Shown here piece by piece: positions 1 through 30,294 of a stretch of DNA of 35,037 nucleotides (within the stretch, counting starts at the first letter, position 1; every line of letters starts with the position of its first letter). The notes beneath the pieces were generated by a model. The model saw only the letters and a list, made by a program, of their open reading frames with translations, made no database searches and was not told the DNA's origin. Position numbers and translations under genes: made by a program. Source of the stretch: a virus (lineage: Duplodnaviria > Heunggongvirae > Uroviricota > Caudoviricetes); the IMG/VR virus record IMGVR_UViG_2531839130_000012. One strand, written 5' to 3'.

Positions 1-1032
1 TCAAAAACTTGCTATTGATGTTGGTAGTGTTGCCAGCGGATTAAACCGTAATGCAGTTTCCAGGTGATCCGGTGCTAGATGTGCGTAACGCATAGTCATT
101 TTTATGTCGTGATGTCCGAGGATTTTTTGCAAAGCAAGGATATTTCCACCCGACATCATAAAATGCGCCGCAAACGTATGGCGCAGAACGTGTGTCAGTT
201 GACCGCGAGGGAGCACGATAGACGTTTTTTCCATCACGGATAAAAATTGAAAATAGCAGTCTGTGAAGAAATTGAACCCATCGAGCGCCATGATCTCTTC
301 GTAAAGCTCTTTACTGATAGGGATGCTTCTGTTTTTCTTCCCCTTCGTTCTGACAAAGGTAATTCGGTATTTGGTCACCTGTGAGCGGGTAAGGTTTATT
401 GCTTCTCGCCAGCGTGCGCCTGTGCTTAAGCATATCTTGACTACCAGTGCCAGAATTGGGTCCTGACGTTTGCAATCATCCAGCAGTTCAACAATCTGCT
501 CATGGGTAAGCCATGCCATCTCTTTTTCTGCGATGGTGAATTTTCGCATGTTCTCCAGTGGGTTTGGATACGACCATTCGCCCAGGCGGGATAGTTCGCT
601 AAAAACACTACTTAGATAGCTTTGCTCCAGGTTAATGGTGACCGGGCTGGCCCCTTTCTTCCATTTCTCGCTGAAGTAGATCTCACCTGTCAGTCGTTTA
701 TCTCGATAATGGGCAAACATTTTAGATGTGAGATCGGTTGCAAGGGGATTGCCCAGAGCGTCAACCATCAGCAGCAATTTGTCATAGACATGCTGCCCAG
801 CAGTCAGAGATTTACCATGTAGTTTGAACCATAGCTCAACCACGTCTTTCAGGGTTCGACGATCTACTGATTCGCCCAGCCAGGGCTTTGCTTCGGTTTC
901 TTCCATCGTGTGACGCTCAAAAGCCAGTGCTTCGCCTTTGGTGGCGAATTGTTTACGCACACGACGCCCACTACGTCCGGCGGGGTAACATTCGCAAAGC
1001 CATTTTCCTGTGGTGAGTTTTCGTACTGCCAT
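1..1032 (-). CDS. int: Tyrosine integrase (P2/186 family)
   Basis: C-terminal catalytic region with HVLRHTFAAHFMM (HxxR box) and MTMRYAHLAP (catalytic Tyr); start at internal MAVRK Met preceded by GGAGGG Shine-Dalgarno on the minus strand; stop codon is bases 1-3. Confidence 0.9.
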   Translation of the reverse strand: MAVRKLTTGKWLCECYPAGRSGRRVRKQFATKGEALAFERHTMEETEAKPWLGESVDRRTLKDVVELWFKLHGKSLTAGQHVYDKLLLMVDALGNPLATDLTSKMFAHYRDKRLTGEIYFSEKWKKGASPVTINLEQSYLSSVFSELSRLGEWSYPNPLENMRKFTIAEKEMAWLTHEQIVELLDDCKRQDPILALVVKICLSTGARWREAINLTRSQVTKYRITFVRTKGKKNRSIPISKELYEEIMALDGFNFFTDCYFQFLSVMEKTSIVLPRGQLTHVLRHTFAAHFMMSGGNILALQKILGHHDIKMTMRYAHLAPDHLETALRFNPLATLPTSIASF

Positions 1033-1218
1033 AAAAAATGCCCTCCAATAGAGAGCATTTTTACTGTATGTATAACCAGTGTCAATGTATGAAATCTTGC
1101 GACCATACATCTCACTGAAGCCATAATGAAGTTGGCTATTTTTTGCTATGTGAGTATGTGACTTTTGCGGTTAGCCTGCGGCTCATTGTTATATTAGGCG
1201 CAGATATAAAAGCAAAAA

Positions 1219-1425: not shown

Positions 1426-1995
1426 TTACCTAACGTACTTAATTGTTAAACTTATAATTTTTCCAATTATTTCAACATCTTCTATCTTGCACTCGAAGGA
1501 TCTGTTTCCACCTTCAACGAAGATTCTTCCACCGGGTAAACGAGTAATGTCGCGGATTGTTATTTCGCCATCAATACTTATTACCCATTTACCATCACGT
1601 ATATCATCAAATTCTTTATCACAAATAAATTCAGAATTGTTATCTGTGATGACAAAAGGTTTTTTAAACGTAGAGGGTAGAAATCCCTTATCAAAAATAT
1701 AAAAACCGTCTTCACGCAAGGCACCATCAGATAATACATATTTAGCAACTTCCATCGTATTTGTATTACCTGAAGTTTGCTTTGAACCATGTCCAGTTGT
1801 GAGCCAATTAAGCGAGGTGCCCGTTTCAAGGGCGCACTGGATTACCCATTCTGCTGGGAATGAGTCACGCATGTAGCGTGTAGCGAGTGTACTTTTAGAG
1901 ATTCCTAAATGATCGCACAACGCCTGTCGAGTTTTGAATCCATAAGCTTCTACCATGCGCTCTATAGCGCCTCGTCCGCCTTTCTCCAAATTCAT
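1426..1995 (-). CDS. cI: Phage 186 CI-type immunity repressor
   Basis: About 190 aa; N-terminal HTH region (AYGF...LCDHLGISKSTLATRY) and C-terminal domain resembling 186 CI; divergent from the Apl/cII operon; ATG at 1995 preceded by GGAG (the 1999-2001 GTG is the alternative start). Confidence 0.8.
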   Translation of the reverse strand: MNLEKGGRGAIERMVEAYGFKTRQALCDHLGISKSTLATRYMRDSFPAEWVIQCALETGTSLNWLTTGHGSKQTSGNTNTMEVAKYVLSDGALREDGFYIFDKGFLPSTFKKPFVITDNNSEFICDKEFDDIRDGKWVISIDGEITIRDITRLPGGRIFVEGGNRSFECKIEDVEIIGKIISLTIKYVR

Positions 1996-2019
1996 GGTCA
2001 CTCCAAGTGAACTTTTATC

Positions 2020-2368: not shown

Positions 2369-2884
2369 TTGACCATGTTTGATTACCAAGTTTCCAAACA
2401 TCCACATTTTGATGAAGCCTGTCGTGCATTTGCACTGCGCCACAATCTGGTGCAACTGGCAGAACGTGCAGGCATGAATGTGCAGATTCTGCGGAACAAG
2501 CTGAACCCAGCTCAGCCTCATTTATTAACCGCACCAGAAATCTGGCTGCTTACCGATCTGACTGAAGATTCAACGCTGGTAGATGGTTTTCTGGCACAGA
2601 TTCACTGCCTGCCATGTGTACCGATTAATGAGGTTGCAAAAGAGAAACTGCCGCATTACGTCATGAGCGCAACTGCAGAGATCGGACGTGTTGCAGCAGG
2701 TGCGGTATCTGGTGATGTAAAAACTAGTGCCGGTCGTCGTGATGCTATCAGCAGCATTAACTCTGTAACACGACTGATGGCGCTGGCTGCTGTTTCATTG
2801 CAGGCCCGTTTACAGGCTAATCCTGCGATGGCGAGTGCAGTTGATACCGTGACTGGCCTCGGTGCTTCATTCGGTTTGCTGTGA
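2369..2884 (+). CDS. cII: 186 CII-type lysogeny-establishment activator
   Basis: 171 aa starting [22 protein letters not shown]..., resembling 186 CII; second gene of the rightward operon. Confidence 0.7.
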
Positions 2885-2891
2885 GGTGCTT

Positions 2892-3092
2892 ATGCTGACG
2901 AAAGAACCATCATTTGCATCGCTGCTGGTAAAACAAAGCCCGGCAATGCACTACGGTCACGGCTGGATCATGGGTGAGGATGGTAAACGCTGGCATCCGT
3001 GCCGTTCACAAGATGAATTGCTGGCAGAACTATCTACGAAAAAACGGGGGAACAAATGGCTATTGAAGGCGCTGCGGCGACTGTTCCATTAA
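2892..3092 (+). CDS. Small early protein of unknown function (186 fil position)
   Basis: ORF overlapping the cII stop; GAGGTG Shine-Dalgarno before ATG 2892; synteny only. Confidence 0.4.
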   Translation: MLTKEPSFASLLVKQSPAMHYGHGWIMGEDGKRWHPCRSQDELLAELSTKKRGNKWLLKALRRLFH

Positions 3093-3397
3093 GCCCCGGT
3101 GAACGCCTGAATGGACTTAATCACATAGCGGAATTAAGGGCAAAAGTTTTTGGCCTGAATATTGAGTCAGAGCTTGAGCGGTTTATTAAAGATATGCGTG
3201 ATCCACGGGATATCAATAACGAACAAAATAAACGAGCACTGGCAGCCATATTCTTTATGGCAAAAATTCCGGCTGAACGTCATAGCATCAGCATCAATGA
3301 GCTGACCACTGACGAAAAGCGGGAGTTGATTAAAGCAATGAATCATTTTCGTGCAGTGGTGAGCTTATTTCCCAGACGGCTAACCATGCCGAATTAA
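3056..3397 (+). CDS. Early protein of unknown function (113 aa)
   Basis: ORF in the early operon; assigned by synteny only. Confidence 0.4.
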   Translation: MAIEGAAATVPLSPGERLNGLNHIAELRAKVFGLNIESELERFIKDMRDPRDINNEQNKRALAAIFFMAKIPAERHSISINELTTDEKRELIKAMNHFRAVVSLFPRRLTMPN

Positions 3398-3925: not shown

Positions 3926-4779
3926 GCACCATCCTGAAATGGGCGGGAAATAAAACCGCCATTATGTCCGAACTGAAAAAACACCTTCCTGCTGGCCCGC
4001 GACTGGTTGAACCTTTCGCGGGTTCCTGTGCTGTGATGATGGAGACGGATTACCCCAGCTATCTGGTTGCGGATATTAATCCTGATTTAATCAACCTCTA
4101 TAAAAAGGTTGCCGCTGATTGTGAATCGTTTATATCTCGCGCCAGAGTTTTATTTGAGATCGCAAACAGGGAGGTGGCTTATTACAACATAAGGCAGGAG
4201 TTTAATTACTCCACTGAAATTACTGATTTCATGAAAGCGGTATATTTCCTGTATCTCAATCGTCACGGTTACCGTGGTTTATGTCGCTATAACAAGAGCG
4301 GGCATTTCAACATTCCCTACGGTAATTATAAAAATCCGTATTTCCCTGAAAAAGAAATTCGCGCATTTGCAGAAAAGGCCCAGCGAGCAACGTTTATCTG
4401 CGCCAGCTTTGATGAAACGCTGGCGATGTTGAAGGCGGGGGATGTGGTGTATTGCGATCCGCCGTATGACGGTACGTTTTCCGGCTATCACACTGACGGC
4501 TTCACTGAAGATGACCAGTATCACCTGGCATCTGTTCTTGAACATCGGTCATCAGAAGGACATCCAGTCATTGTTTCTAACAGTGACACATCCCTGATCC
4601 GTTCGCTGTATCGCAATTTTACTCACCACTACATCAAGGCAAAACGCAGCATCGGTGTGGCAGCTGGCGAGGGTAAATCAGCAACAGAAATCATTGCTGT
4701 TTCCGGGCCGCGCTGCTGGGTGGGATTTGATTATTCGCGTGGCGTGGATAGTTCTGCCGTGTACGGAGTACGTGCATGA
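3922..4779 (+). CDS. dam: DNA N6-adenine methyltransferase, Dam family
   Basis: Motif [10 protein letters not shown] and motif IV DPPY ([10 protein letters not shown]); starts [11 protein letters not shown]; GGAGG Shine-Dalgarno; stop overlaps the gene A start. Confidence 0.85.
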
Positions 4780-7190
4780 GTCATGCCGATATGAACAACT
4801 GCTGCGGCTTTAACGAGGCTGCCGCAGCATTCTCATGGAACAGCCCGAAAAAGGCCATTAACCCTTATCTGGACCCGGCGGAAGTTGCGCCGGTTTCTAC
4901 GCTTTCAAACCTGATCACTCTGTACGCTGCCGATAACGAGCAGGAACAGTTGCGCCGCGAGGCACTGAGTGATCAGGTCTGGGAGCGTTATTTCTTTAAT
5001 GAATCACGTGATCCTGTCCAGCGCGAAATGGAGCAGGATAAGCTCATTAGCCGGGCAAAGCTGGCGCATGAGCAGCAGCGTTTTAATTCAGACATGGTCA
5101 TTCTGGCGGACGTCAACGCCCAGCCTTCCCATATCAGCAAGCCGCTGATGCAACGTATTGAATACTTCAGCAGCCTGGGCAGGCCAAAGGCTTATTCCCG
5201 CTATTTACGTGAGACGATTAAGCCATGTCTGGAACGACTGGAGCATGTACGCGACAGTCAGCTATCTGCATCTTTTCGCTTTATGGCAAGCCATGAAGGG
5301 CTGGACGGCCTGCTGATCCTGCCTGAAATGAGTCAGGATCAGGTGAAACGCCTGTCCACCCTAGTAGCTGCGCATATGAGTATGTGCCTTGATGCAGCTT
5401 GTGGTGATTTGTATGCCACCGATGACGTTAAGCCAGAAGAAATCCGCAAGACATGGGAAAAGGTGGCAGCGGAAACCCTGCGTCTGGATGTCATCCCACC
5501 TGCGTTTGAGCAACTCCGTCGGAAAAGAAACCGCCGTAAACCCGTGCCCTATGAACTCATTCCGGGTTCGCTGGCGCGTATGTTGTGCGCCGACTGGTGG
5601 TATCGGAAATTATGGAAGATGCGTTGCGAATGGCGGGAAGAGCAGTTGCGCGCTGTTTGCCTGGTCAGCAAAAAAGCATCTCCTTATGTCAGCTATGAAG
5701 CCGTGATGCATAAACGTGAGCAGCGCCGTAAGTCGCTGGAGTTTTTCCGTTCTCATGAACTGGTGAACGAAGACGGCGACACGCTGGACATGGAGGATGT
5801 GGTAAACGCCAGCAGCAGCAACCCTGCGCATCGCCGCAATGAGATGATGGCCTGTGTTAAAGGTCTGGAGCTTATCGCGGAAATGCGCGGTGACTGCGCC
5901 GTTTTCTACACTATCACCTGTCCGTCGCGTTTCCATTCCACGCTAAATAACGGCAGACCAAACCCGACCTGGACAAACGCGACGGTAAGACAAAGCAGCG
6001 ATTATCTGGTCGGCATGTTTGCTGCATTTCGTAAGGCGATGCACAAAGCCGGGTTGCGCTGGTATGGCGTGCGGGTGGCTGAGCCGCATCATGATGGCAC
6101 AGTTCACTGGCACCTGTTGTGTTTCATGCGCAAAAAAGACCGCCGTGCCATCACTGCATTACTGCGTAAGTTTGCCATCCGTGAAGACCGCGAGGAGCTG
6201 GGCAATAACACTGGGCCGCGCTTTAAGTCTGAGTTGATTAACCCGCGCAAAGGAACGCCGACAAGCTATATCGCGAAATATATCAGTAAGAACATTGACG
6301 GTCGTGGTCTGGCTGGCGAGATCAGCAAGGAAACGGGTAAATCTCTGCGTGATAACGCTGAATACGTGAATGCCTGGGCGTCTCTGCATCGTGTTCAGCA
6401 ATTCCGCTTCTTTGGTATTCCGGGGCGTCAGGCTTACCGTGAACTTCGCTTGCTGGCTGGTCAGGCGGCAAGGCAACAGGGTGACAAAAAAGCAGGTGCG
6501 CCGGTACTGGATAACCCGCGTCTTGATGCCATTCTGGCTGCTGCTGATGCTGGTTGTTTTGCCACCTACATCATGAAGCAGGGCGGCGTACTGGTTCCCC
6601 GTAAATATCACCTCATCAGAACCGCTTATGAAATCAACGAAGAGCCGACCGCCTATGGCGATCACGGCATTCGTATTTATGGCATCTGGTCACCCATTGC
6701 AGAGGGCAAGATCTGCACTCATGCAGTGAAGTGGAAAATGGTTCGTAAAGCCGTTGACGTTCAGGAGGCGGCAGCCGACCAGGGCGCTTGCGCCCCTTGG
6801 ACTCGTGGCAATAACTGTCCCCTTGCTGAAAATTTGAACCAACAGGAGAAAGATAAATCAGCTGATGGGGACCCCAGAACGGACATTACCCGCATGGATG
6901 ACAAGGTGTTGCACGATTACCTGCACAGTATGAACAAAAAGGAGCGCCGGGAACTGGCTGCAAGGTTACGCCTGGTGAAACCGAAATGGCGTAGAGACTA
7001 CAAACAGCGAATTACAGACCATCAACGACAGCAGCTCGTCTATGAACTGAAGTCCAGAGGATTTGATGGCAGCGAGAAAGAGGTCGATTTACTCCTTCGC
7101 GGCGGCAGTATTCCGTCAGGAGCAGGCCTGCGTATCTTCTATCGGAACCAGCGTTTGCAGGAAGATGATAAGTGGCGGAACCTGTATTAA
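4776..7190 (+). CDS. A: Replication initiation endonuclease A (rolling-circle initiator, P2 gpA family)
   Basis: 804 aa; HUH-like VHWHLL motif and paired-tyrosine [10 protein letters not shown] motif; position after the early operon. Confidence 0.9.
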
Positions 7191-7259
7191 TTACGCTGGT
7201 TAACAATTCGTGCTCTTAATAATACCAGGCATATCAGGCTGATAAGCGTAAAAAAACGT

Positions 7260-7302
7260 TTTACATCAGTAAGATTATTATATACTGTAAACATAAACAG
7301 TG
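7260..7302 (+). promoter_or_regulatory. SOS promoter: -35 TTTACA (7260-7265), -10 TATACT (7281-7286), overlapping LexA box TACTGTAAACATAAACAGTG (7283-7302)
   Basis: CTGT-N8-ACAG core with 16/20 match to the LexA consensus TACTGTATATATATACAGTA, placed over the -10/+1 region about 45 nt upstream of the next ATG. Confidence 0.6.
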
Positions 7303-7343
7303 GTTATACATACAGTATTGCGTGTGGTGTCATAGGAGGAAAG

Positions 7344-7532
7344 ATGCAGGACTATTTTTTGGAGTCTTTGAAGCTCCAGCGCATTGATTTTTTTCTTAAG
7401 CTTGTAGCGGCTAGTGAGTGTAGTGATGAAGAGAAGGGGCTGGCTCTGCAGTGGGTTTCTGAATTGACTGATGAACTCATGGCAAAAATCAGAAGCCACG
7501 AATACAACCGCTCAATGGATGTCATCAACTGA
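7344..7532 (+). CDS. Small SOS-regulated protein (62 aa), possible Tum-like antirepressor N-terminal module
   Basis: Strong TAGGAGGA Shine-Dalgarno before ATG 7344; first ORF after the LexA box; same position as the 186 tum operon. Confidence 0.45.
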   Translation: MQDYFLESLKLQRIDFFLKLVAASECSDEEKGLALQWVSELTDELMAKIRSHEYNRSMDVIN

Positions 7533-7542
7533 GGTGACTTTT

Positions 7543-7776
7543 ATGCGCATTGAAATAATGATCGATAAAGAGCAGAAGATTAGCCAGTCTACCCTGGACG
7601 CCCTTGAATCCGAGCTTTACCGCAATCTGCGCCCCCTGTATCCCAAAACGGTAATCCGTATCCGTAAAGGTAGCTCTAACGGTGTGGAACTGACCGGACT
7701 GCAACTGGACGAAGAAAGAAAACAAGTGATGAAAATTATGCAGAAGGTGTGGGAAGACGACAGCTGGCTGCATTGA
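7543..7776 (+). CDS. DinI-family protein
   Basis: MRIEIMIDK...LDALESELYRNL...YP...KQVMKIMQKVWEDDSW aligns along its length with E. coli DinI (MRIEV..., ...WESADDW); GAGG Shine-Dalgarno before ATG 7543. Confidence 0.75.
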   Translation: MRIEIMIDKEQKISQSTLDALESELYRNLRPLYPKTVIRIRKGSSNGVELTGLQLDEERKQVMKIMQKVWEDDSWLH

Positions 7777-7830
7777 TTTTGTCAATAGACGCTTGTTTTT
7801 ACTAATCAAAAAGGGTTACATATGAGTGAG

Positions 7831-7863
7831 AGGCGATGTCAATCAGATATCGCCTTGTTTTTT
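7831..7863 (+). terminator. Rho-independent terminator-like hairpin (AGGCGAT / ATCGCCT) followed by TTGTTTTTT
   Basis: Read directly from the sequence downstream of the DinI-like gene. Confidence 0.45.
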
Positions 7864-7889
7864 GTCAAGAAAAGAATAATAGGCTAAAA

Positions 7890-8567
7890 ATGAAAATTAA
7901 TAACGTAGCGTTACCAATATCTCTGGCTGTAATCCTAACTGGTTGCGTGCCACATGCTTCTAACCGAAATATCACTGCTATTGAAGTGGTGAAGCCTGCT
8001 ATTGGGCAAAGTGCTACCGCCTACATGGGCGATCCCATTATCACATCTGCTACTGGATTTAAAACGGACGTACTAGAACTTGGTGCGGCTAATGGTGCAT
8101 TGTCTTCTATCGCTGCTGGTACATATTGCAGTGAGGGGAATGGAATTTACCGCAATTATCATAACCCTCAAGCTGTTGCGTTAAAAAATCTCTATGGGCA
8201 AATCGGTAACTATGTTGATTATGTTAGTTACGATGCTGCAAAAAATGAGATATCACCGCCAAATGGTACTTCTTATACTGCATCAGAAATTTCTATCAAA
8301 CGTGTTCCTGATGGGCTGTGTCGAGTTAGTAACTCATTGGTTAAGACTATCGAATACAATGGAAATGCAGGCGGTGTAATGAAGTTCACCTATCGTGAAT
8401 TTGCAAACGATATGGCTCGTGCAGCATTTACAACAGATTTTTCTGTAGATTCTAAGGGAAGTGACGTTATCGCTTACAAAGGTGCCAAGTTCAAAGTGAA
8501 CAAGGCTGATAACTCGTCTATTTCTTATACAATTATTTCTGGCTTTGACAAGACTGTCACGTTCTAG
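7890..8567 (+). CDS. Lipoprotein of unknown function (lipobox LTGC), cargo gene
   Basis: MKINNVALPISLAVILTGC signal with lipobox Cys; AT-rich; sits between the SOS operon and the cos-like site. Confidence 0.6.
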   Translation: MKINNVALPISLAVILTGCVPHASNRNITAIEVVKPAIGQSATAYMGDPIITSATGFKTDVLELGAANGALSSIAAGTYCSEGNGIYRNYHNPQAVALKNLYGQIGNYVDYVSYDAAKNEISPPNGTSYTASEISIKRVPDGLCRVSNSLVKTIEYNGNAGGVMKFTYREFANDMARAAFTTDFSVDSKGSDVIAYKGAKFKVNKADNSSISYTIISGFDKTVTF

Positions 8568-8671
8568 GTTTCACGCTTGCTGAGTATGTTACGATTTTGC
8601 ACATTCTGCATAAACGCGCATGTCTATGCTGCATGAGATCGCATGATCGTTTGAGGATCTTTTGTGTTAAG

Positions 8672-8698
8672 GCCCGCCAGTTCTGGCGGGCTTTTGCG
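8672..8698 (+). terminator. Rho-independent terminator (GCCCGCCAG ttc TGGCGGGC then TTTTG)
   Basis: Perfect GC-rich stem plus T-run downstream of the lipoprotein gene. Confidence 0.6.
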
Positions 8699-8740
8699 TA
8701 GATCATGCAGGTGCATGAAAACCACTACATAAAGCGGGCA

Positions 8741-8759
8741 GGCGTGGCGGGGATACGAG
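8741..8759. other. Candidate cos (cohesive-end) site, GGCGTGGCGGGGA...
   Basis: 13/13 identity to the start of the 19-nt P2/186 cohesive-end sequence as I recall it (GGCG[A/T]GGCGGGGAAAGCA...); location between gene A and the portal gene matches P2/186. Confidence 0.4.
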
Positions 8760-8840
8760 CGCGCGGATGAGTAATCTATACCATCATCTTGATAAAAGTA
8801 TTAAAAATGGTAAATTTAGCAAGCTACATATTAAAGGAAA

Positions 8841-10238
8841 ATGAAGATGTATGAAGTAATTGATATATCAGCGCAGGAAATTAAGGCGTTGTTAAACACT
8901 ACTGAAGATCATTTCAATGATTTTAAAAGTAAGCAAATAGCGCCTAATAAATTACAAGAAACTTTTGTAGCATTTGCAAATGCTGATGGCGGTAATATTT
9001 ATATTGGCATAGAGGATGCAGCTTCGGGGAGAGAGCGTATATCTGGTTTCAATGAGCCAGAGGAAGCGAATGCTATTATTTCGACCTTATTGGAAAATAC
9101 TAATCCAGCTGTTGAGAATGTTGAGGTGGAATATTTAAGAACACCTTCCAATGGATTGATTTTACATGTGGATATACCAAAAAGCCCCAAAGTTCATTAC
9201 ACGGCCTCTGGCGATTGCTTTATAAGAGCTAACGCGCAAAAATTAAAAATAAAAGGTGAGCGAATTACTCAGCTTTCCTATTCTAAAGGCGCAGAACCTT
9301 ATGAAAAAAAAGCAGTGGATATAGTTGAAGTAGAAGATATTCTTGAAAGTGAATATTATTCTGATTATTTACGTAGAATAGGAACGACTCAGTCACCGAG
9401 AGTTTTTTTAAAAAAACAACGACTGTTAACTAAGAAAGATGGTGAATTTGTCCCGAATGTAGGCTGTGTTTTACTATTTGATGAAGAGCCTCAAGGATGT
9501 TTAGATACTCGATGTGCTGTAAAAGTATATCGGCTTAGAACAACTGAAGCAGAGTACAAACGTGAACAATTACAGGAAGATCCTGTAACGATTGAGGGGC
9601 CACTTGAAGTGGTTATTTTAAATACAATAGCAAAAGTAAAAGAATATGTTGATGGAGCATCATTCAAAGACGGCGAAAATCTAGTAAAACTTAGCTATCC
9701 TGCAGAAGCATTGAAGGAAATATTAGTTAATGCTGTTATTCATAGAGATTACAGCCAAAAGGATGATGTGCACGTAAAAGTTTATGACAACCGGATTGAA
9801 GTTCAAAGTCCAGGCAGATTGCCTGGATACATGACTATTAATAATTTATATGAAGAGCGGTTTTCTCGTAATCCAAATTTAGTGCGTTTGTTGCATAAAC
9901 TTCCCAATCCAGTGAACCATGATATTGGTGAGGGGCTTGATACTGCAAAAAATGAATTGCGTAAGGCCGGGTTGGTAGCCCCGGTATTTGAAGAAAGGGG
10001 CAATAATTTTGTTGTAATAGTTAAGCATCAAACAATAGCCTCAATTGAGGATGTGATTATTAATTATTTTAAAGAAAATCCAACGGGACAGCTCACAAAT
10101 AAGTTGGTTAGACAATTAAGTGGCGAAGATGACCTTCAAAAGGTTAAAAAGGCATTGCAAAAGTTAAGGGAGGAGGGCGTAATAAAACCATTAGATCCTA
10201 ACGCGAATCCTTTCAAATTTAAATATATTAAAGCTTAA
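8841..10238 (+). CDS. Schlafen-like/AlbA_2 DNA-binding domain + HATPase_c_4-like domain + C-terminal winged-helix protein (465 aa); candidate defence/cargo gene
   Basis: N-terminal FNDFKSK...VAFANADGGNIYIGIED (AlbA_2/Schlafen signature); central EALKEILVNAVIHRDYS...VKVYDNRIEVQSPGRLP (HATPase_c_4 signature); C-terminal LTNKLVRQLSGEDDLQKVKKALQKLREEGVI (wHTH-like); strongly AT-rich; flanked by terminators; the start may be ATG 8847 rather than 8841. Confidence 0.7.
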   Translation: MKMYEVIDISAQEIKALLNTTEDHFNDFKSKQIAPNKLQETFVAFANADGGNIYIGIEDAASGRERISGFNEPEEANAIISTLLENTNPAVENVEVEYLRTPSNGLILHVDIPKSPKVHYTASGDCFIRANAQKLKIKGERITQLSYSKGAEPYEKKAVDIVEVEDILESEYYSDYLRRIGTTQSPRVFLKKQRLLTKKDGEFVPNVGCVLLFDEEPQGCLDTRCAVKVYRLRTTEAEYKREQLQEDPVTIEGPLEVVILNTIAKVKEYVDGASFKDGENLVKLSYPAEALKEILVNAVIHRDYSQKDDVHVKVYDNRIEVQSPGRLPGYMTINNLYEERFSRNPNLVRLLHKLPNPVNHDIGEGLDTAKNELRKAGLVAPVFEERGNNFVVIVKHQTIASIEDVIINYFKENPTGQLTNKLVRQLSGEDDLQKVKKALQKLREEGVIKPLDPNANPFKFKYIKA

Positions 10239-10289: not shown

Positions 10290-11318
10290 TTATAGTTTAT
10301 AGTGTTCGAAAGTTATTGCTTCTTCATTGATCCAATAGTTGAGATCTTGTAACTTCTTCTGAAGTGGCATCAGTTCATTCCGAACAAATACCCGGCTGGC
10401 CTTCTCCACATCCCCAAACCCTCCAACATTATTAGGCATAATCCCCATCATTTGCGGCGGCACGCGGTGCGCAGCCATCATGTCGTCGCGGCTGACATTT
10501 TTGATATTCAGAAATTCATCCTTCGCCGCGACTTCTGATAACGGGATGATTTGAAGCCCGTCCTTTTTGCCGTTAGGCGAGTACATAAACAGATTGCGGA
10601 AGTTGCCTGGACCTTTGGCGCTTTTCATTGCGTTGCGGAGGTTGTTCACATCCTCCTGGTTCTGCGCGGCATCGGTCATGTACATGATGAAGCCTGCATG
10701 GCTGCCGTTGATGTAATACTTACGGCGGAACAGCGTGGCGGACTCGTTGAGCAGGGCTGACGGAATGGCAGAAAGATAGCCGGGCAGGCCGTAGATCTCC
10801 TGGTTAATGTCCGGTTCCATCAGATGAAAAATGCTGCCTTTCGTGAACTGATACGGCTGGGTTGTCATACCGTATTGCACAAACCAGTAGGTATCCAGGT
10901 CTAACCCGCGTCGGGTGTATTTTGCCAGAGCAGGCTCAAGGGCGATAACTTCACCGAAGCGGTTCGTGCGTTTCTCCAGGTAGGCGTTACCAAATACCAG
11001 ATAGTCCTGCACAAAACGTGAAAAAGCCTGCTGGCTGAGCAGCGGATGGGGGATGTAGGTACTGGTCAGAATGTTGCATTTCACCGCAATTGGTGAACTG
11101 TGATGCACGGCGGCGCGGAAGGTGCGTGCCAGTCCGTCAAAGCTTACTGGCGGCTCATACCAGCGATCTGTCTGTACGCATTCCACATAGTCCAGTAGTT
11201 CGCGGCGGTCCAGAACAGGAACGGGATCACCGAAGCTGAATGCTTCGGCTGTAGTTTGACTTTTATGCTGGATCTGGTTCGTCGACGCAGCGCGGTTCTT
11301 CTTACTCTTTCCCATCAA
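10290..11318 (-). CDS. Q: Portal protein (P2 gpQ family)
   Basis: 342 aa; first late gene next to the cos region, co-oriented with and overlapping the terminase ATPase gene, as in the P2 PQ operon. Confidence 0.9.
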   Translation of the reverse strand: MMGKSKKNRAASTNQIQHKSQTTAEAFSFGDPVPVLDRRELLDYVECVQTDRWYEPPVSFDGLARTFRAAVHHSSPIAVKCNILTSTYIPHPLLSQQAFSRFVQDYLVFGNAYLEKRTNRFGEVIALEPALAKYTRRGLDLDTYWFVQYGMTTQPYQFTKGSIFHLMEPDINQEIYGLPGYLSAIPSALLNESATLFRRKYYINGSHAGFIMYMTDAAQNQEDVNNLRNAMKSAKGPGNFRNLFMYSPNGKKDGLQIIPLSEVAAKDEFLNIKNVSRDDMMAAHRVPPQMMGIMPNNVGGFGDVEKASRVFVRNELMPLQKKLQDLNYWINEEAITFEHYKL

Positions 11319-27090: not shown

Positions 27091-27224
27091 CGGTTGACGA
27101 TCTGGTGGCAGATATCGCCACCATTTTTCACTGGCCGCCATCCGTTACTGACGTTATGCCGCTGACCGAAGTGCTGGAATGGCGGTATAAAGCGATTCAG
27201 AGAAGCGGGGCCAACGATGAGTGA
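26788..27224 (+). CDS. E+E' tail assembly chaperone produced by programmed -1 ribosomal frameshift at TTTTTTG (27045-27051)
   Basis: The -1 frame after the slippery heptamer is open to TGA at 27222-27224 and reads ...ADIATIFHWPPSVTDVMPLTEVLEWRYKAIQRSGANDE, overlapping the T start as in P2. Confidence 0.6.
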
Positions 27225-30200
27225 TAACAACCTGCGTCTGCAGGTCATTCTTAATGCGGTTGACAAGCTCACCCGCCCATTTCGATCTGCGCAGGCCAGT
27301 TCAAGAGAACTGGCTGCTGCTGTCAAAAAATCCCGCGATGCAATAAAGCAGCTTGATCAGGCCGGGAGCAGTCTGGACAGCTTCCGAAAGCTGCAGGCAG
27401 AAAATCAGAAATTAGGCGACAGGCTGAACTATGCCCGCCAGCGTGCAAATTTGCTCAGTCAGGAACTGGGAGCGATGGGGCCGCCTTCGCAACGTCAGGT
27501 TGTTGCTCTGGGCCGTCAACGGCTGGCTGTTCAGCGCCTGGAAGAACGCCAGAAAAAGCTGCAGCAGCAGACGGCGCTTGTGCGTGCTGAACTGTACCGG
27601 GCGGGAATTTCTGCGAAAGACGATGCGGGAGCAACTGCCCGTTTAGCCCGTGAAACATCACGTTATAACCAGGAACTTTCGAAACAGGAGGCGCGGCTGA
27701 AGCGACTGGGGGAAGCTCAGCGCAGGATGAATGCAGCGCGTGCCAGTTATGCCCGTTCGCTGGAGGTGCGTGATCGTATTGCAGGTGCCGGAGCCACCAC
27801 CACGGCTGCAGGGCTGGCAATGGGCGCACCAGTGATGGCGGCAGTAAAAAGCTATACCAGCATGGAAGATGCCATGAAAGGTGTGGCAAAGCAGGTCAAT
27901 GGTCTGCGTGACGATAATGGCAACCGCACTGCACGTTTTTATGAAATGCAGGATGCCATCAAGGCTGCCAGCGAACAGTTGCCGATGGAAAACGGTGCGG
28001 TGGATTTCGCTGCACTGGTTGAAGGTGGTGCGCGCATGAACGTCGCAAACCCTGACGACAGTTGGGAAGATCAGAAACGTGACCTGCTGGCCTTCGCCAG
28101 TACGGCAGCAAAGGCGGCAACAGCCTTTGAGCTGCCAGCGGATGAACTGTCAGAAAGTCTGGGGAAAATCGCCCAGCTCTACAAAATCCCCACCCGCAAT
28201 ATTGAACAGCTCGGCGATGCGCTGAACTATCTGGATGATAACGCCATGTCGAAAGGGGCAGACATCATTGATGTGATGCAACGTCTGGGCGGTGTGGCTG
28301 ACCGTCTGGATTATCGTAAAGCGGCGGCGCTGGGTTCCACCTTCCTGACACTGGGCGCTGCGCCAGAGGTTGCAGCCAGTGCAGCAAACGCGATGGTGCG
28401 TGAATTGTCCATTGCCACCATGCAAAGCAAGAGTTTCTTTGAAGGGATGAATCTGCTGAAACTCAATCCTGAAGTGATTGAAAAGCAGATGACGAAGGAT
28501 GCGATGGGAACCATCCAGCGCGTGCTGGAGAAGGTGAACGCACTGCCGCAGGACAAGCGTCTGTCTGCCATGACCATGTTGTTTGGTAAAGAGTTTGGCG
28601 ATGACGCGGCGAAACTGGCAAACAACCTGCCGGAACTGCAGCGCCAGTTAAAGCTGACAGCGGGCAATGATGCGCTCGGTTCCATGCAGAAAGAATCCGA
28701 CATCAACAAGGACTCACTTTCTGCTCAGTGGTTGCTGGTCAAAACCGGAGCGCAGAACACCTTCAGCAGCCTGGGTGAAACGCTGCGCCAGCCGCTGATG
28801 GATATTCTGTACACGGTGAAAAGCGTCACGGGGGCGTTGCGTCGCTGGGTGGAAGCTAACCCGGAACTGACGGGCACACTGATGAAAGCAGCGGCTGTTG
28901 TGGCTGCGGTTACCGTGGGCCTCGGCACCTTAGCGGTGGTGTTAGCTGCAGTGCTGGGGCCGCTGGCAGTGATCCGTCTGGGGTTCTCTGTGCTGGGTAT
29001 CAAAACGTTACCTTCCGTTACGGCAGCAGTAACCCGAACCAGCAGCGCGTTGTCCTGGCTGGCTGGCGCACCACTGGCACTGCTGCGACGCGGGCTTACT
29101 TCATCGGGCAACGCCGCAGGTTTACTTACTGCGCCGTTGTCGTCTTTGCGCCGCACGGCATCACTGACGGGAAATGTCCTGAAAACTGTAGCAGGTGCGC
29201 CGGTTGCACTTTTGCGGTCTGGATTATCCGGTTTACGTGCTGTTGCTGTGATGTTTATGAATCCTCTGGCGGTACTGCGCGGTGGGCTGGCCGCCGCAGG
29301 CACGGTGCTGCGAGTACTGGCATCTGGTCCACTGGCGATGCTGCGCGTTGCCCTGTATGCCGTATCTGGTCTGTTAGGTGCTCTGCTCAGTCCGATAGGT
29401 CTTGTGGTTACTGCACTGGCGGGCGTGGCGCTGGTTGTCTGGAAATACTGGCAACCCATCACCGCATTTCTTGGTGGCGTGGTGGAAGGATTCAAAGCGG
29501 CGGCAGGTCCCGTCAGTGCAGCATTCGAACCGCTTAAGCCCGTATTCCAGTGGATTGGCGACAAAGTACAGGCGCTGTGGGGCTGGTTTACTGATCTGCT
29601 GACGCCCGTTAAGTCGACCTCTGCCGAACTGCAGAGTGCAGCGGCAATGGGGCGGCGATTCGGGGAGGCACTGGCGGAAGGGCTGAATATGGTCATGCAT
29701 CCGCTGGACTCCCTGAAATCCGGCGTTTCCTGGTTGCTGGAGAAACTCGGCGTTGTCAGTAAAGAGGCCGCAAAGGCGAAACTACCGGAAAGTGTGACGC
29801 GTCAGCAACCTGCGACGGTGAATACAGACGGTAAAGTGATGATGCCATCGGGTGGTTTTCCGTCATGGGGATATGGCTTTGCGGGGATGTATGACAGCGG
29901 CGGCTATATCCCGCGCGGGCAGTTTGGCATCGTCGGTGAAAACGGGCCGGAAATTGTTAACGGCCCGGCAAATGTGACCAGCCGGAGAAATACAGCTGCA
30001 CTGGCTGCCGTTGTTGCCGGAATGATGGGCGTTGCTGCCGCGCCAGCAGAGCTTCCACCGTTGCACCCTTTGGCACTTCCCGCGAAAGGTGGAGAAGCAA
30101 TTGTGAGTCGCGCAGCCACTGTGCCGCCCGTTTACAGGATTGAGGCACCGACGCAGATCATCATCCAGACGCAGCCAGGACAAAGTGCGCAGGATATTGC

Positions 30201-30294
30201 GCGGGAGGTGGCCCGCCAGCTTGATGAACGTGAACGCAGGCTGAAGGCAAAAGCCAGGAGTAACTACAGCGATCAGGGGGGATACGACGCATGA
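27217..30294 (+). CDS. T: Tail tape-measure protein T
   Basis: 1025 aa; N-terminal coiled-coil region, internal degenerate PLA(V/L)LR.GL repeats, hydrophobic segments. Confidence 0.9.
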   Translation: MSDNNLRLQVILNAVDKLTRPFRSAQASSRELAAAVKKSRDAIKQLDQAGSSLDSFRKLQAENQKLGDRLNYARQRANLLSQELGAMGPPSQRQVVALGRQRLAVQRLEERQKKLQQQTALVRAELYRAGISAKDDAGATARLARETSRYNQELSKQEARLKRLGEAQRRMNAARASYARSLEVRDRIAGAGATTTAAGLAMGAPVMAAVKSYTSMEDAMKGVAKQVNGLRDDNGNRTARFYEMQDAIKAASEQLPMENGAVDFAALVEGGARMNVANPDDSWEDQKRDLLAFASTAAKAATAFELPADELSESLGKIAQLYKIPTRNIEQLGDALNYLDDNAMSKGADIIDVMQRLGGVADRLDYRKAAALGSTFLTLGAAPEVAASAANAMVRELSIATMQSKSFFEGMNLLKLNPEVIEKQMTKDAMGTIQRVLEKVNALPQDKRLSAMTMLFGKEFGDDAAKLANNLPELQRQLKLTAGNDALGSMQKESDINKDSLSAQWLLVKTGAQNTFSSLGETLRQPLMDILYTVKSVTGALRRWVEANPELTGTLMKAAAVVAAVTVGLGTLAVVLAAVLGPLAVIRLGFSVLGIKTLPSVTAAVTRTSSALSWLAGAPLALLRRGLTSSGNAAGLLTAPLSSLRRTASLTGNVLKTVAGAPVALLRSGLSGLRAVAVMFMNPLAVLRGGLAAAGTVLRVLASGPLAMLRVALYAVSGLLGALLSPIGLVVTALAGVALVVWKYWQPITAFLGGVVEGFKAAAGPVSAAFEPLKPVFQWIGDKVQALWGWFTDLLTPVKSTSAELQSAAAMGRRFGEALAEGLNMVMHPLDSLKSGVSWLLEKLGVVSKEAAKAKLPESVTRQQPATVNTDGKVMMPSGGFPSWGYGFAGMYDSGGYIPRGQFGIVGENGPEIVNGPANVTSRRNTAALAAVVAGMMGVAAAPAELPPLHPLALPAKGGEAIVSRAATVPPVYRIEAPTQIIIQTQPGQSAQDIAREVARQLDERERRLKAKARSNYSDQGGYDA

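Follow-up and report, generated by a model that had tools for sequence, protein, structure and literature searches.

A lipoprotein gene at the right end of a P2-family prophage

We analysed a 35,037-nucleotide stretch of DNA from a virus of the Caudoviricetes (IMG/VR record IMGVR_UViG_2531839130_000012; hereafter "the window"), in which a gene near the right end of the phage genome encodes a putative lipoprotein labelled hypothetical in all public sources. The window is a Fels-2-type prophage of the P2 family. It is 98% identical over positions 7200-8765 to Fels-2 of Salmonella LT2 and to many P2-like phages of Klebsiella pneumoniae. The lipoprotein gene is the last one before the cos region, which follows directly (Table 1), and this bears out the original prediction, made from the letters of the window, that it stands at the right end of the genome. 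The window at 8709-8765 matches positions 1-57 of Cartapus at 98%, a stretch annotated as 'putative cos site, homologous to the cos of P2', and the phages SI22 and SW9 match the cos region at the ends of their records. The putative cohesive end at 8741-8759 agrees with P2 cosL (GGCGAGGCGGGGAAAGCAC) at 14 of 19 positions, and the motif is unique in the window. In P2, this position between gene A and cosR is the tin/old slot.

The open reading frame (ORF) that had been predicted for the lipoprotein is real, although the length of 226 residues first given for its product is off by one. Its N-terminus (MKINNVALPISLAVILTGC, then VPHASN...) has a lysine at position 2, a hydrophobic core, no Asp, Glu, Arg or Lys at residues 9-14 and the lipobox I15-L16-T17-G18-C19, with residues 1-18 as the signal peptide and Cys19 (codon at 7944-7946) as the candidate for lipidation. 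We applied a PROSITE PS51257-style rule that asks for a charged n-region, an uncharged stretch and the lipobox [LVI][ASTVI][GAS]C with the Cys at 15-35. The window protein matches this rule, with Val at +2, as do 260 of the 302 full-length members of its family, none of these 260 with Asp at +2. G18 and C19 are invariant among 24 homologs, down to 24% identity. The lipoprotein signal with its LTGC lipobox, as given in the original prediction, is well supported by these observations. Exactly two cysteines occur in the mature part of 211 of the 260 rule-positive members (Cys80 and Cys144 in the window), and this conserved pair suggests an extracytoplasmic disulfide. The absence of Asp at +2 is a sorting rule valid for Enterobacterales only; by this enterobacterial rule, the protein should be processed by Lgt and Lsp at Cys19 and then carried by Lol to the outer membrane. 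Its all-beta body of ~195 residues should thus lie in the periplasm or at the surface.

The ortholog in Fels-2, STM2726, is 98.7% identical. The Fels-2 record (NC_010463) annotates STM2726.Fels2 at 243 residues, from an ATG 18 codons upstream (7836; extension 7836-7889). We dropped this start and regard 7890 as the better one, because 7836 lies inside the hairpin that precedes the gene and because the extension is not kept in diverged copies. The 243-residue annotation hides the lipoprotein signal inside the protein, which is probably one reason for the label 'hypothetical protein'. The gene itself was already on record as a hypothetical ORF in Fels-2.

The lipoprotein belongs to a large and structurally unplaced family

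The protein matches phrog_1353 over its full length in a hidden Markov model search (E 6.3e-105, 351 bits, residues 1-222 on profile positions 1-229 of 230). This family has no functional annotation, and the PHROG matches are limited to two families, both without assigned function. Scans of the protein against Pfam (E≤0.1), NCBIfam and PADLOC-DB v2 (E≤0.1) returned no family, and Pfam scans of ten distant family members returned nothing. An exhaustive profile search (E≤1e-3) gathered 2,434 cluster representatives at 50% identity, nearly all of 210-240 residues, from Gamma-, Beta- and Alphaproteobacteria, Nitrospirota, Planctomycetota, Verrucomicrobiota, Gemmatimonadota and Omnitrophota. The family is large and uncharacterised.

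At 90% identity, the cluster of the lipoprotein has 1,023 members, including proteins of Salmonella, E. coli and Klebsiella. The representative of this cluster is a 308-residue branched-chain amino-acid transaminase (IlvE), and many members are IlvE as well, which looks like a clustering artefact. Because of this artefact, our first homology search gave no full-length match above 88% identity.

The AlphaFold2 model has a predicted local distance difference test score (pLDDT) of 80.2, with many blocks above 90 and residues 1-27 below 50, and contains 17 beta strands. The modelled protein has a short disordered tether, up to about residue 27-30, followed by an all-beta body. A sequence-profile search of the PDB gave only a nanobody, at E 0.41, which we rejected, and recurring weak matches to polysaccharide lyases and hydrolases were dropped as noise (TM-scores 0.1-0.2). 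Conservation is uneven along the protein: the frequency of the majority residue is 0.56-0.67 in the C-terminal ~70 residues (about 150-219), compared with 0.21-0.40 in the N-terminal part. The residues Y156, G158, Y168, R169, E170, R177, D187 and N208 of this C-terminal module are invariant or nearly so. Compared with an 88%-identical copy, the ratio of nonsynonymous to synonymous substitution rates (dN/dS) is 0.06, and compared with Fels-2 it is 0.15; the gene is under strong purifying selection. The ORF is intact in dozens of independent prophages and in 50 complete E. coli genomes.

The gene is carried by a self-contained cassette

Homology between the window and the lipoprotein-less P2-like phages 500465-1, vB_EcoM-813R9, Klebsiella Kp4845-2, ST15-OXA48phi14.1 and Cartapus stops at ~7774-7776, the stop codon of dinI, and in the alignment with Escherichia phage 500465-1 it is back at ~8617. 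We therefore delimited the cassette at ~7777-8617. It is a self-contained accessory unit that follows the dinI stop and precedes the terminator/cos backbone. In empty-site phages of the Kp4845 type, the gap from dinI to cos is only ~135 bp. The lipoprotein gene has a GC content of 0.39-0.43, against 0.50-0.58 in gpA and Q/P, so its description as AT-rich holds; for the cassette the value is ~0.40, and for the backbone ~0.52-0.56. Its description as cargo agrees with this low GC, with the presence/absence polymorphism and with the abrupt edges at 7776 and ~8617. Between prophages of Salmonella, E. coli and Klebsiella, the cassette keeps 98-100% identity, while the hotspot beside it changes its content.

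The strong terminator expected at the 3' side of the gene exists as a GC-rich hairpin of 11 pairs at 8669-8694, strong in a fold of 8560-8700, but it belongs to the phage backbone and lies outside the cassette. Phages share the stretch 8670-8765 at 92-100% identity whether or not they carry the lipoprotein. Part of 7780-8780 was matched in ~1,280 of the 5,426 complete E. coli genomes, with the lipoprotein in only 50; the matched part is probably the cos/terminator backbone.

A conserved leader follows an SOS operon

Upstream of the cassette lie orf62 and a gene of the DinI family (dinI). They are backbone genes, common to phages without the lipoprotein. The LexA box in front of them is the only perfect match to CTGT-N8-ACAG in the window; its overlap with the -10 element was read by eye from the sequence. 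Together with the DinI-family gene, it confirms the upstream 'SOS operon' of the original prediction. The arrangement looks like the Fels-2-type counterpart of the tum SOS operon of phage 186, and orf62, which has no annotated family, could be an antirepressor.

The terminator-like hairpin predicted upstream of the lipoprotein gene (7831-7863) was recovered at 7830-7863 by a terminator scan, and the leader RNA has a folding energy of -20.2 kcal/mol (z -3.25). The pairing is maintained by compensatory changes in two diverged lineages, where the stem GGCGAT/ATCGCC becomes GGCTAT/ATAGTC (L018) or GGTGAT/GTCACC (L058). Cassette copies whose proteins are 82% and 88% identical keep both stem and T-run. 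Two copies outside P2 contexts (79-80% protein identity) have other sequence in place of the T-run hairpin but keep a GTTACATATGA-like motif directly upstream of it. The hairpin accompanies the cassette in P2-type contexts only. The leader has no match in Rfam.

The promoter-like element is less clear. Its two hexamers are present where they had been placed, but they are weak and at chance level in our scan: ACTAAT has no A in the second place of a -10 element and is absent from the promoter-scan list, and the region contains 9 promoter-like sites against 10.2 expected in shuffles. By eye, TTGnnn and TAnnnT-like hexamers stand at roughly the same alignment columns in diverged cassettes. Another promoter, located after the hairpin (TTGTCA at 7862 with AAAAAT) and listed by the scan, was dropped because it runs into the start codon and because diverged copies do not share it.

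Expression of the ortholog has been recorded in arrays of an LT2 derivative treated with MX, an SOS-inducing mutagen, which list STM2726-STM2727-STM2728 as one predicted operon (PMC2225428). All three genes rose after MX, each with p≤0.01, from 14.8-fold (STM2727) down to 2.6-fold (PMC2225428). The same study includes the DinI ortholog STM2727 among its LexA-regulon genes, with a 5.5-14.8-fold induction (PMC2225428). The rise fits attenuated or partial read-through, or co-induction, and prophage induction could contribute to it. Attenuated or read-through expression from the SOS operon, as first proposed, is thus consistent with the hairpin that separates operon and gene and with the response to MX, although prophage induction could explain the latter. 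We would expect basal expression of the lipoprotein from the weak cassette promoter, throttled by the conserved hairpin and T-run. DNA damage would then raise expression by read-through from the LexA-controlled orf62-dinI operon, by prophage induction, or by both.

Table 1. Features of the window in and around the lipoprotein cassette.
Feature	Position	Strand	Details
Lipoprotein coding sequence	7890-8567	+	225 residues plus stop; phrog_1353
Lipoprotein cassette (moron)	7777-8617	+	~840 bp; present or absent as a unit
Sigma-70-like hexamers, weak	7779-7806	+	TTGTCA 7779-7784, 16-nt spacer, ACTAAT 7801-7806; candidate own promoter
Terminator/attenuator hairpin and T-run	7830-7863	+	Stem 7830-7856, 11 pairs, loop AATCA; 27 nt before the start codon
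Intrinsic-terminator hairpin	8669-8695	+	AAGGCCCGCCA-GTTC-TGGCGGGCTTT then T; backbone
cos region	8709-8765	+	Putative 19-nt cohesive end 8741-8759 = GGCGTGGCGGGGATACGAG
LexA box	7285-7300	+	CTGTAAACATAAACAG; overlaps the -10 of the orf62-dinI promoter
orf62	7344-7532	+	phrog_698
DinI-family gene (dinI)	7543-7776	+	PF06183, E 6.6e-23; phrog_189
Replication protein gpA	4776-7190		PF05840
AlbA_2 (Schlafen) and HATPase_c_4 protein	8841-10238	+	465 residues; PF04326, PF13749; phrog_12156; outside the lipoprotein cassette
Portal Q	10290-11318	-	Followed by terminase P, head and tail genes

Relatives occur in many mobile elements and beside tape-measure genes

We found no conserved partner gene among 63 lineages defined at 70% identity. 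The commonest neighbour family occurs in five of them and appears to be an integrase. Enterobacterial relatives at 53-82% identity occupy several kinds of sites: one from Buttiauxella is in the P2 slot beside a TIR/SEFIR gene, others are in serine-recombinase islands with OLD-family nucleases or an AbiC-like gene, and an 80%-identical copy adjoins a CS1-type fimbrial operon. Copies at ~37% identity are found on non-mobilizable plasmids of ~95-128 kb in E. coli, Shigella, Citrobacter and Klebsiella; 5 of 30 plasmid matches are to conjugative ones. In the two plasmid contexts examined (L160, NZ_CP032074.1, and L161, NZ_CP081792.1; match at ~6001-6630), both IncFIB with genes for a DnaB-like helicase and a ligase, the copy is a lone ORF in opposite orientation between the replication genes and a ParA-like ATPase. 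These two look like phage-plasmids of the SSU5/pHCM2 type. More distant copies lie at the cargo end of a P4-like satellite and beside HNH/AAA_13 genes. In the bulk annotation of neighbours, housekeeping genes are mixed with integrases, tail genes, ANT, RhuM, AIPR, ParE and a DNA methylase. The gene moves among P2-like myophages, SSU5-type phage-plasmids, siphophages, P4-like satellites and recombinase islands.

In ~7 of 11 lineages from siphophage-type contigs and prophages, the gene adjoins that of the tape-measure protein (TMP) or lies one small ORF away from it. It mostly stands between the tail-assembly chaperone and the TMP; in some cases it directly follows the TMP. Nine large neighbours are TMPs according to PHROGs (from at least four TMP families), and two more TMP neighbours were already annotated as such. 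The chance of such proximity in a phage of ~60 genes is roughly 7% per lineage, a figure that ignores kinship among lineages. The TMP-adjacent loci (L003, L011, L081, L084-L087, L089, L091, L094, L095, L098, L099 and L117) are an unusual place for an inserted gene. We discarded a role as a structural tail protein in siphophages on account of the invariant export and lipidation signal.

The adjoining site and the rest of the prophage

Homology with lipoprotein-bearing phages ends at 8765, and the site between cos and Q holds other cargo. In the window, this is a protein with AlbA_2 and HATPase_c_4 domains encoded at ~36% GC, with a weak RPA_C-like match at its C-terminus. In PADLOC, it resembles in part some models associated with pAgo and SIR2 (E 1e-19 to 3e-11). 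This protein is a candidate for a defence made of one gene, separate from the lipoprotein. The 55 loci that carry the same cassette have at least 25 different gene sets at the cos-Q site. Occupants include a reverse transcriptase with a partner gene in Klebsiella 4LV2017 (L002) and a SEFIR/TIR gene in Buttiauxella (L018), and the empty-lipoprotein-site phage 500465-1 (L159) encodes a TIR-domain protein across cos, at 2669-3097. These cases illustrate a defence-type turnover of the site. We considered a two-gene system made of the lipoprotein and the AlbA_2 protein, and dropped it because there is no conserved partner and the site is hypervariable.

At the other end of the window, an integrase-size ORF (1-1110, minus strand) and a 191-residue ORF (1426-2001, minus strand) stand at the places expected for the integrase and the repressor; their position suggests these functions. 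A further terminator-like hairpin (7521-7538, 6 pairs and TTTTAT) lies across the stop codon of orf62, just before the start of dinI. It may tune the ratio of orf62 to dinI expression or may be a chance match.

Comparison with known phage and plasmid lipoproteins

Envelope lipoproteins of Gram-negative prophages are a known kind, of which only a few tiny families (Cor, Llp) are understood. Cor (of phi80, N15, HK022 and T1-like phages) and Llp (of T5) are small outer-membrane lipoproteins that block FhuA. The lipoprotein of the window resembles them in being phage-encoded, of the Lgt/Lsp type, predicted to reach the outer membrane and carried as a dispensable single-gene moron. The cor and llp genes adjoin those for tail fibres or receptor-binding proteins, and the siphophage homologs of our family also lie inside the tail/entry gene block. 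Yet there are clear differences. Library searches of Pfam and PHROGs and fold searches of BFVD and PDB gave no match that would relate the window protein to them. The mature window protein has ~206 residues, compared with roughly 60-80 in Cor and Llp. The family spans many phyla and non-phage loci, whereas Cor and Llp are tied to phages that use FhuA, and the host phage of the window lipoprotein is a P2-type myovirus, a group that uses lipopolysaccharide (LPS). The original interpretation is partly supported: the Cor/Llp-like role in superinfection exclusion that it put forward is plausible, even if these searches gave no sequence or fold relation to either, and the protein may work in a similar way by analogy.

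The cassette shares with tin/old, and with the cargo of P2 'hotspot 1' (reportedly that of Rousset 2022 and Vassallo 2022), the slot, the non-essential character, the AT-richness and the presence or absence among relatives. It differs from tin/old because its product is exported, whereas Tin and Old are cytoplasmic and act on phage replication or DNA, and because it has no homology to either. Unlike hotspot cargo, it is stable, whereas the site across cos swaps rapidly, and it matched no PADLOC model; these models presumably include the Vassallo PD systems.

Ltp, of the Streptococcus thermophilus phage TP-J34, is a prophage lipoprotein that blocks DNA injection and targets the TMP. Like Ltp, the window protein is a prophage lipoprotein placed outside the cytoplasmic membrane and could act after adsorption, and the recurrent TMP adjacency of its family suggests a link to the step at which Ltp acts. 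On the other hand, Ltp is found in a Gram-positive host and in the lysogeny module and has an unrelated, helical-repeat fold, and the window gene is far from gpT.

TraT of F-like plasmids and Bor/Iss of lambda are outer-membrane lipoproteins that give surface exclusion or serum resistance. The window protein is, like them, a lipoprotein of a mobile element predicted to reach the outer membrane, and TraT, with about 220-240 residues, is of similar size. However, the window protein gave no hit in Pfam, which we take to contain models of TraT and Bor, and few of the plasmids with relatives are conjugative. By these searches, the lipoprotein is outside the Cor, Llp, TraT and Bor families and outside all PADLOC systems.

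What the lipoprotein may do

The lipoprotein probably works at the cell envelope. We tentatively favour an action there against incoming phages, by superinfection exclusion or by a block of entry, which we regard as possible rather than probable. The lipoprotein would bind a conserved component of the envelope or of the entry route, and not a strain-specific receptor. Specificity would be set by the variable N-terminal part, with the conserved C-terminal module as the constant element. Its higher level upon induction would protect the induced cell and spare the loss of progeny on debris. The context, i.e., the tin/old slot, the defence-type neighbours found elsewhere and the linkage to TMPs in siphophages, speaks for a role against phages or at the envelope. 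Experiments have validated the stretch of P2 from the replication gene to the portal gene as a hotspot of anti-phage genes (PMC9519451; PMC13586616). A screen validated one single-gene 'lipoprotein' system, which we could not identify with this family (PMC9519451).

Several observations weigh against an action on incoming phages. The literature we searched contains no functional study or phenotype of STM2726 or its relatives. We found no sequence or fold homology to known exclusion or defence proteins in Pfam, NCBIfam, PADLOC, PHROGs, PDB or BFVD, and the fold searches of PDB and BFVD with the AlphaFold2 model gave no match. P2-type phages adsorb to the LPS core, so it is not evident that a lipoprotein would act by masking the receptor of its own phage. 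The TMP gene of the window (27217-30294) is ~19 kb away from the lipoprotein gene. The stability of the cassette is unlike that of typical, fast-swapping defence cargo. The promoter of the gene is an unproven candidate, and the array study gives no separate fold change for STM2726 (PMC2225428). Finally, many relatives are at ordinary chromosomal sites, which points to a general envelope role: a Neisseria copy lies between nrdA and nrdB (L015/L016, metagenome contigs, 7001-7687; 173 blocks of the collection), at an apparently non-mobile place that is hard to reconcile with a function in phages alone, and copies in Nitrospirota, Planctomycetota and other phyla adjoin gatB (3 lineages), fatty-acid synthesis genes and the trigger factor.

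The main rival is a benefit to the lysogenic host. The outer-membrane lipoprotein would alter the envelope and affect serum or complement resistance, adhesion or envelope stress. In a variant of the same idea, it would protect the cell from bacteriocins, type VI secretion system effectors or peptidoglycan hydrolases (compare lambda Bor and plasmid TraT). We hold such a lysogenic conversion to be rather unlikely. It would account for an exported lipoprotein on prophages of enteric pathogens with over a thousand members in its 90% cluster, for its very high conservation under strong purifying selection, for the copy beside the fimbrial operon and for the stability of the cassette. The many chromosomal relatives across diderm phyla would reflect a general envelope function borrowed by mobile elements. 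Yet the protein has no similarity to Bor, TraT or known virulence families in Pfam and NCBIfam, no lysozyme-inhibitor or immunity-protein fold was matched in the PDB, and the neighbours in mobile elements are typical of phage defence or entry, not of virulence.

A role in the phage's own lytic cycle, such as stopping the re-adsorption of progeny to debris, remodelling the envelope or aiding release, and without protection of the lysogen, seems improbable to us. The gene does lie downstream of an SOS-induced operon, the predicted operon of its ortholog rises after the mutagen, and the siphophage homologs within the late tail operon, by the tape-measure gene, would be made late. But close relatives lack the gene, which is thus dispensable, and copies also occur where there is no lytic cycle, in satellites, islands and chromosomes. 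The gene is also outside the lysis cassette and has no spanin-like partner, for which reasons we dropped a spanin or lysis role.

That the gene is a passenger without present function here, either a housekeeping envelope family carried along or an ORF poorly expressed behind a terminator, is very improbable: a terminator-like hairpin is directly upstream, no convincing promoter follows it and the searched literature offers no phenotype, but the low dN/dS, the ORF kept intact in so many prophages and genomes, the conserved hairpin and leader motifs and the response of the ortholog's predicted operon to the mutagen all go against it.

The action against incoming phages that we favour has a bolder form. 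The family would be a class of phylum-spanning lipoproteins of the periplasm or outer membrane, not recognised before, with a new beta fold, that block the entry of the genome after adsorption, through the tape-measure/tail-tip channel or its conserved envelope partner. We find this decidedly doubtful. If true, it would make the family a Gram-negative counterpart of Ltp. It would also explain why the gene adjoins TMPs in unrelated siphophages, why P2-type phages, phage-plasmids and P4-like satellites have taken it up as stand-alone exclusion cargo, and why the C-terminal part is conserved and the N-terminal part variable. The linkage to tape-measure genes is a concrete and testable lead to mechanism, and the cassette is small and well delimited.

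A family of this size lacks a Pfam model, an annotation and a detectable structural relative. Its carriers include widespread prophages of Salmonella, E. coli and Klebsiella, among them those of carbapenemase-producing clones. If the lipoprotein excludes phages, it would affect host range in phage therapy and would add an envelope-level mechanism to the repertoire of the P2 hotspot, so far mostly made of cytoplasmic nucleases and abortive infection. If it acts on the host envelope instead, it would be a new factor of lysogenic conversion.

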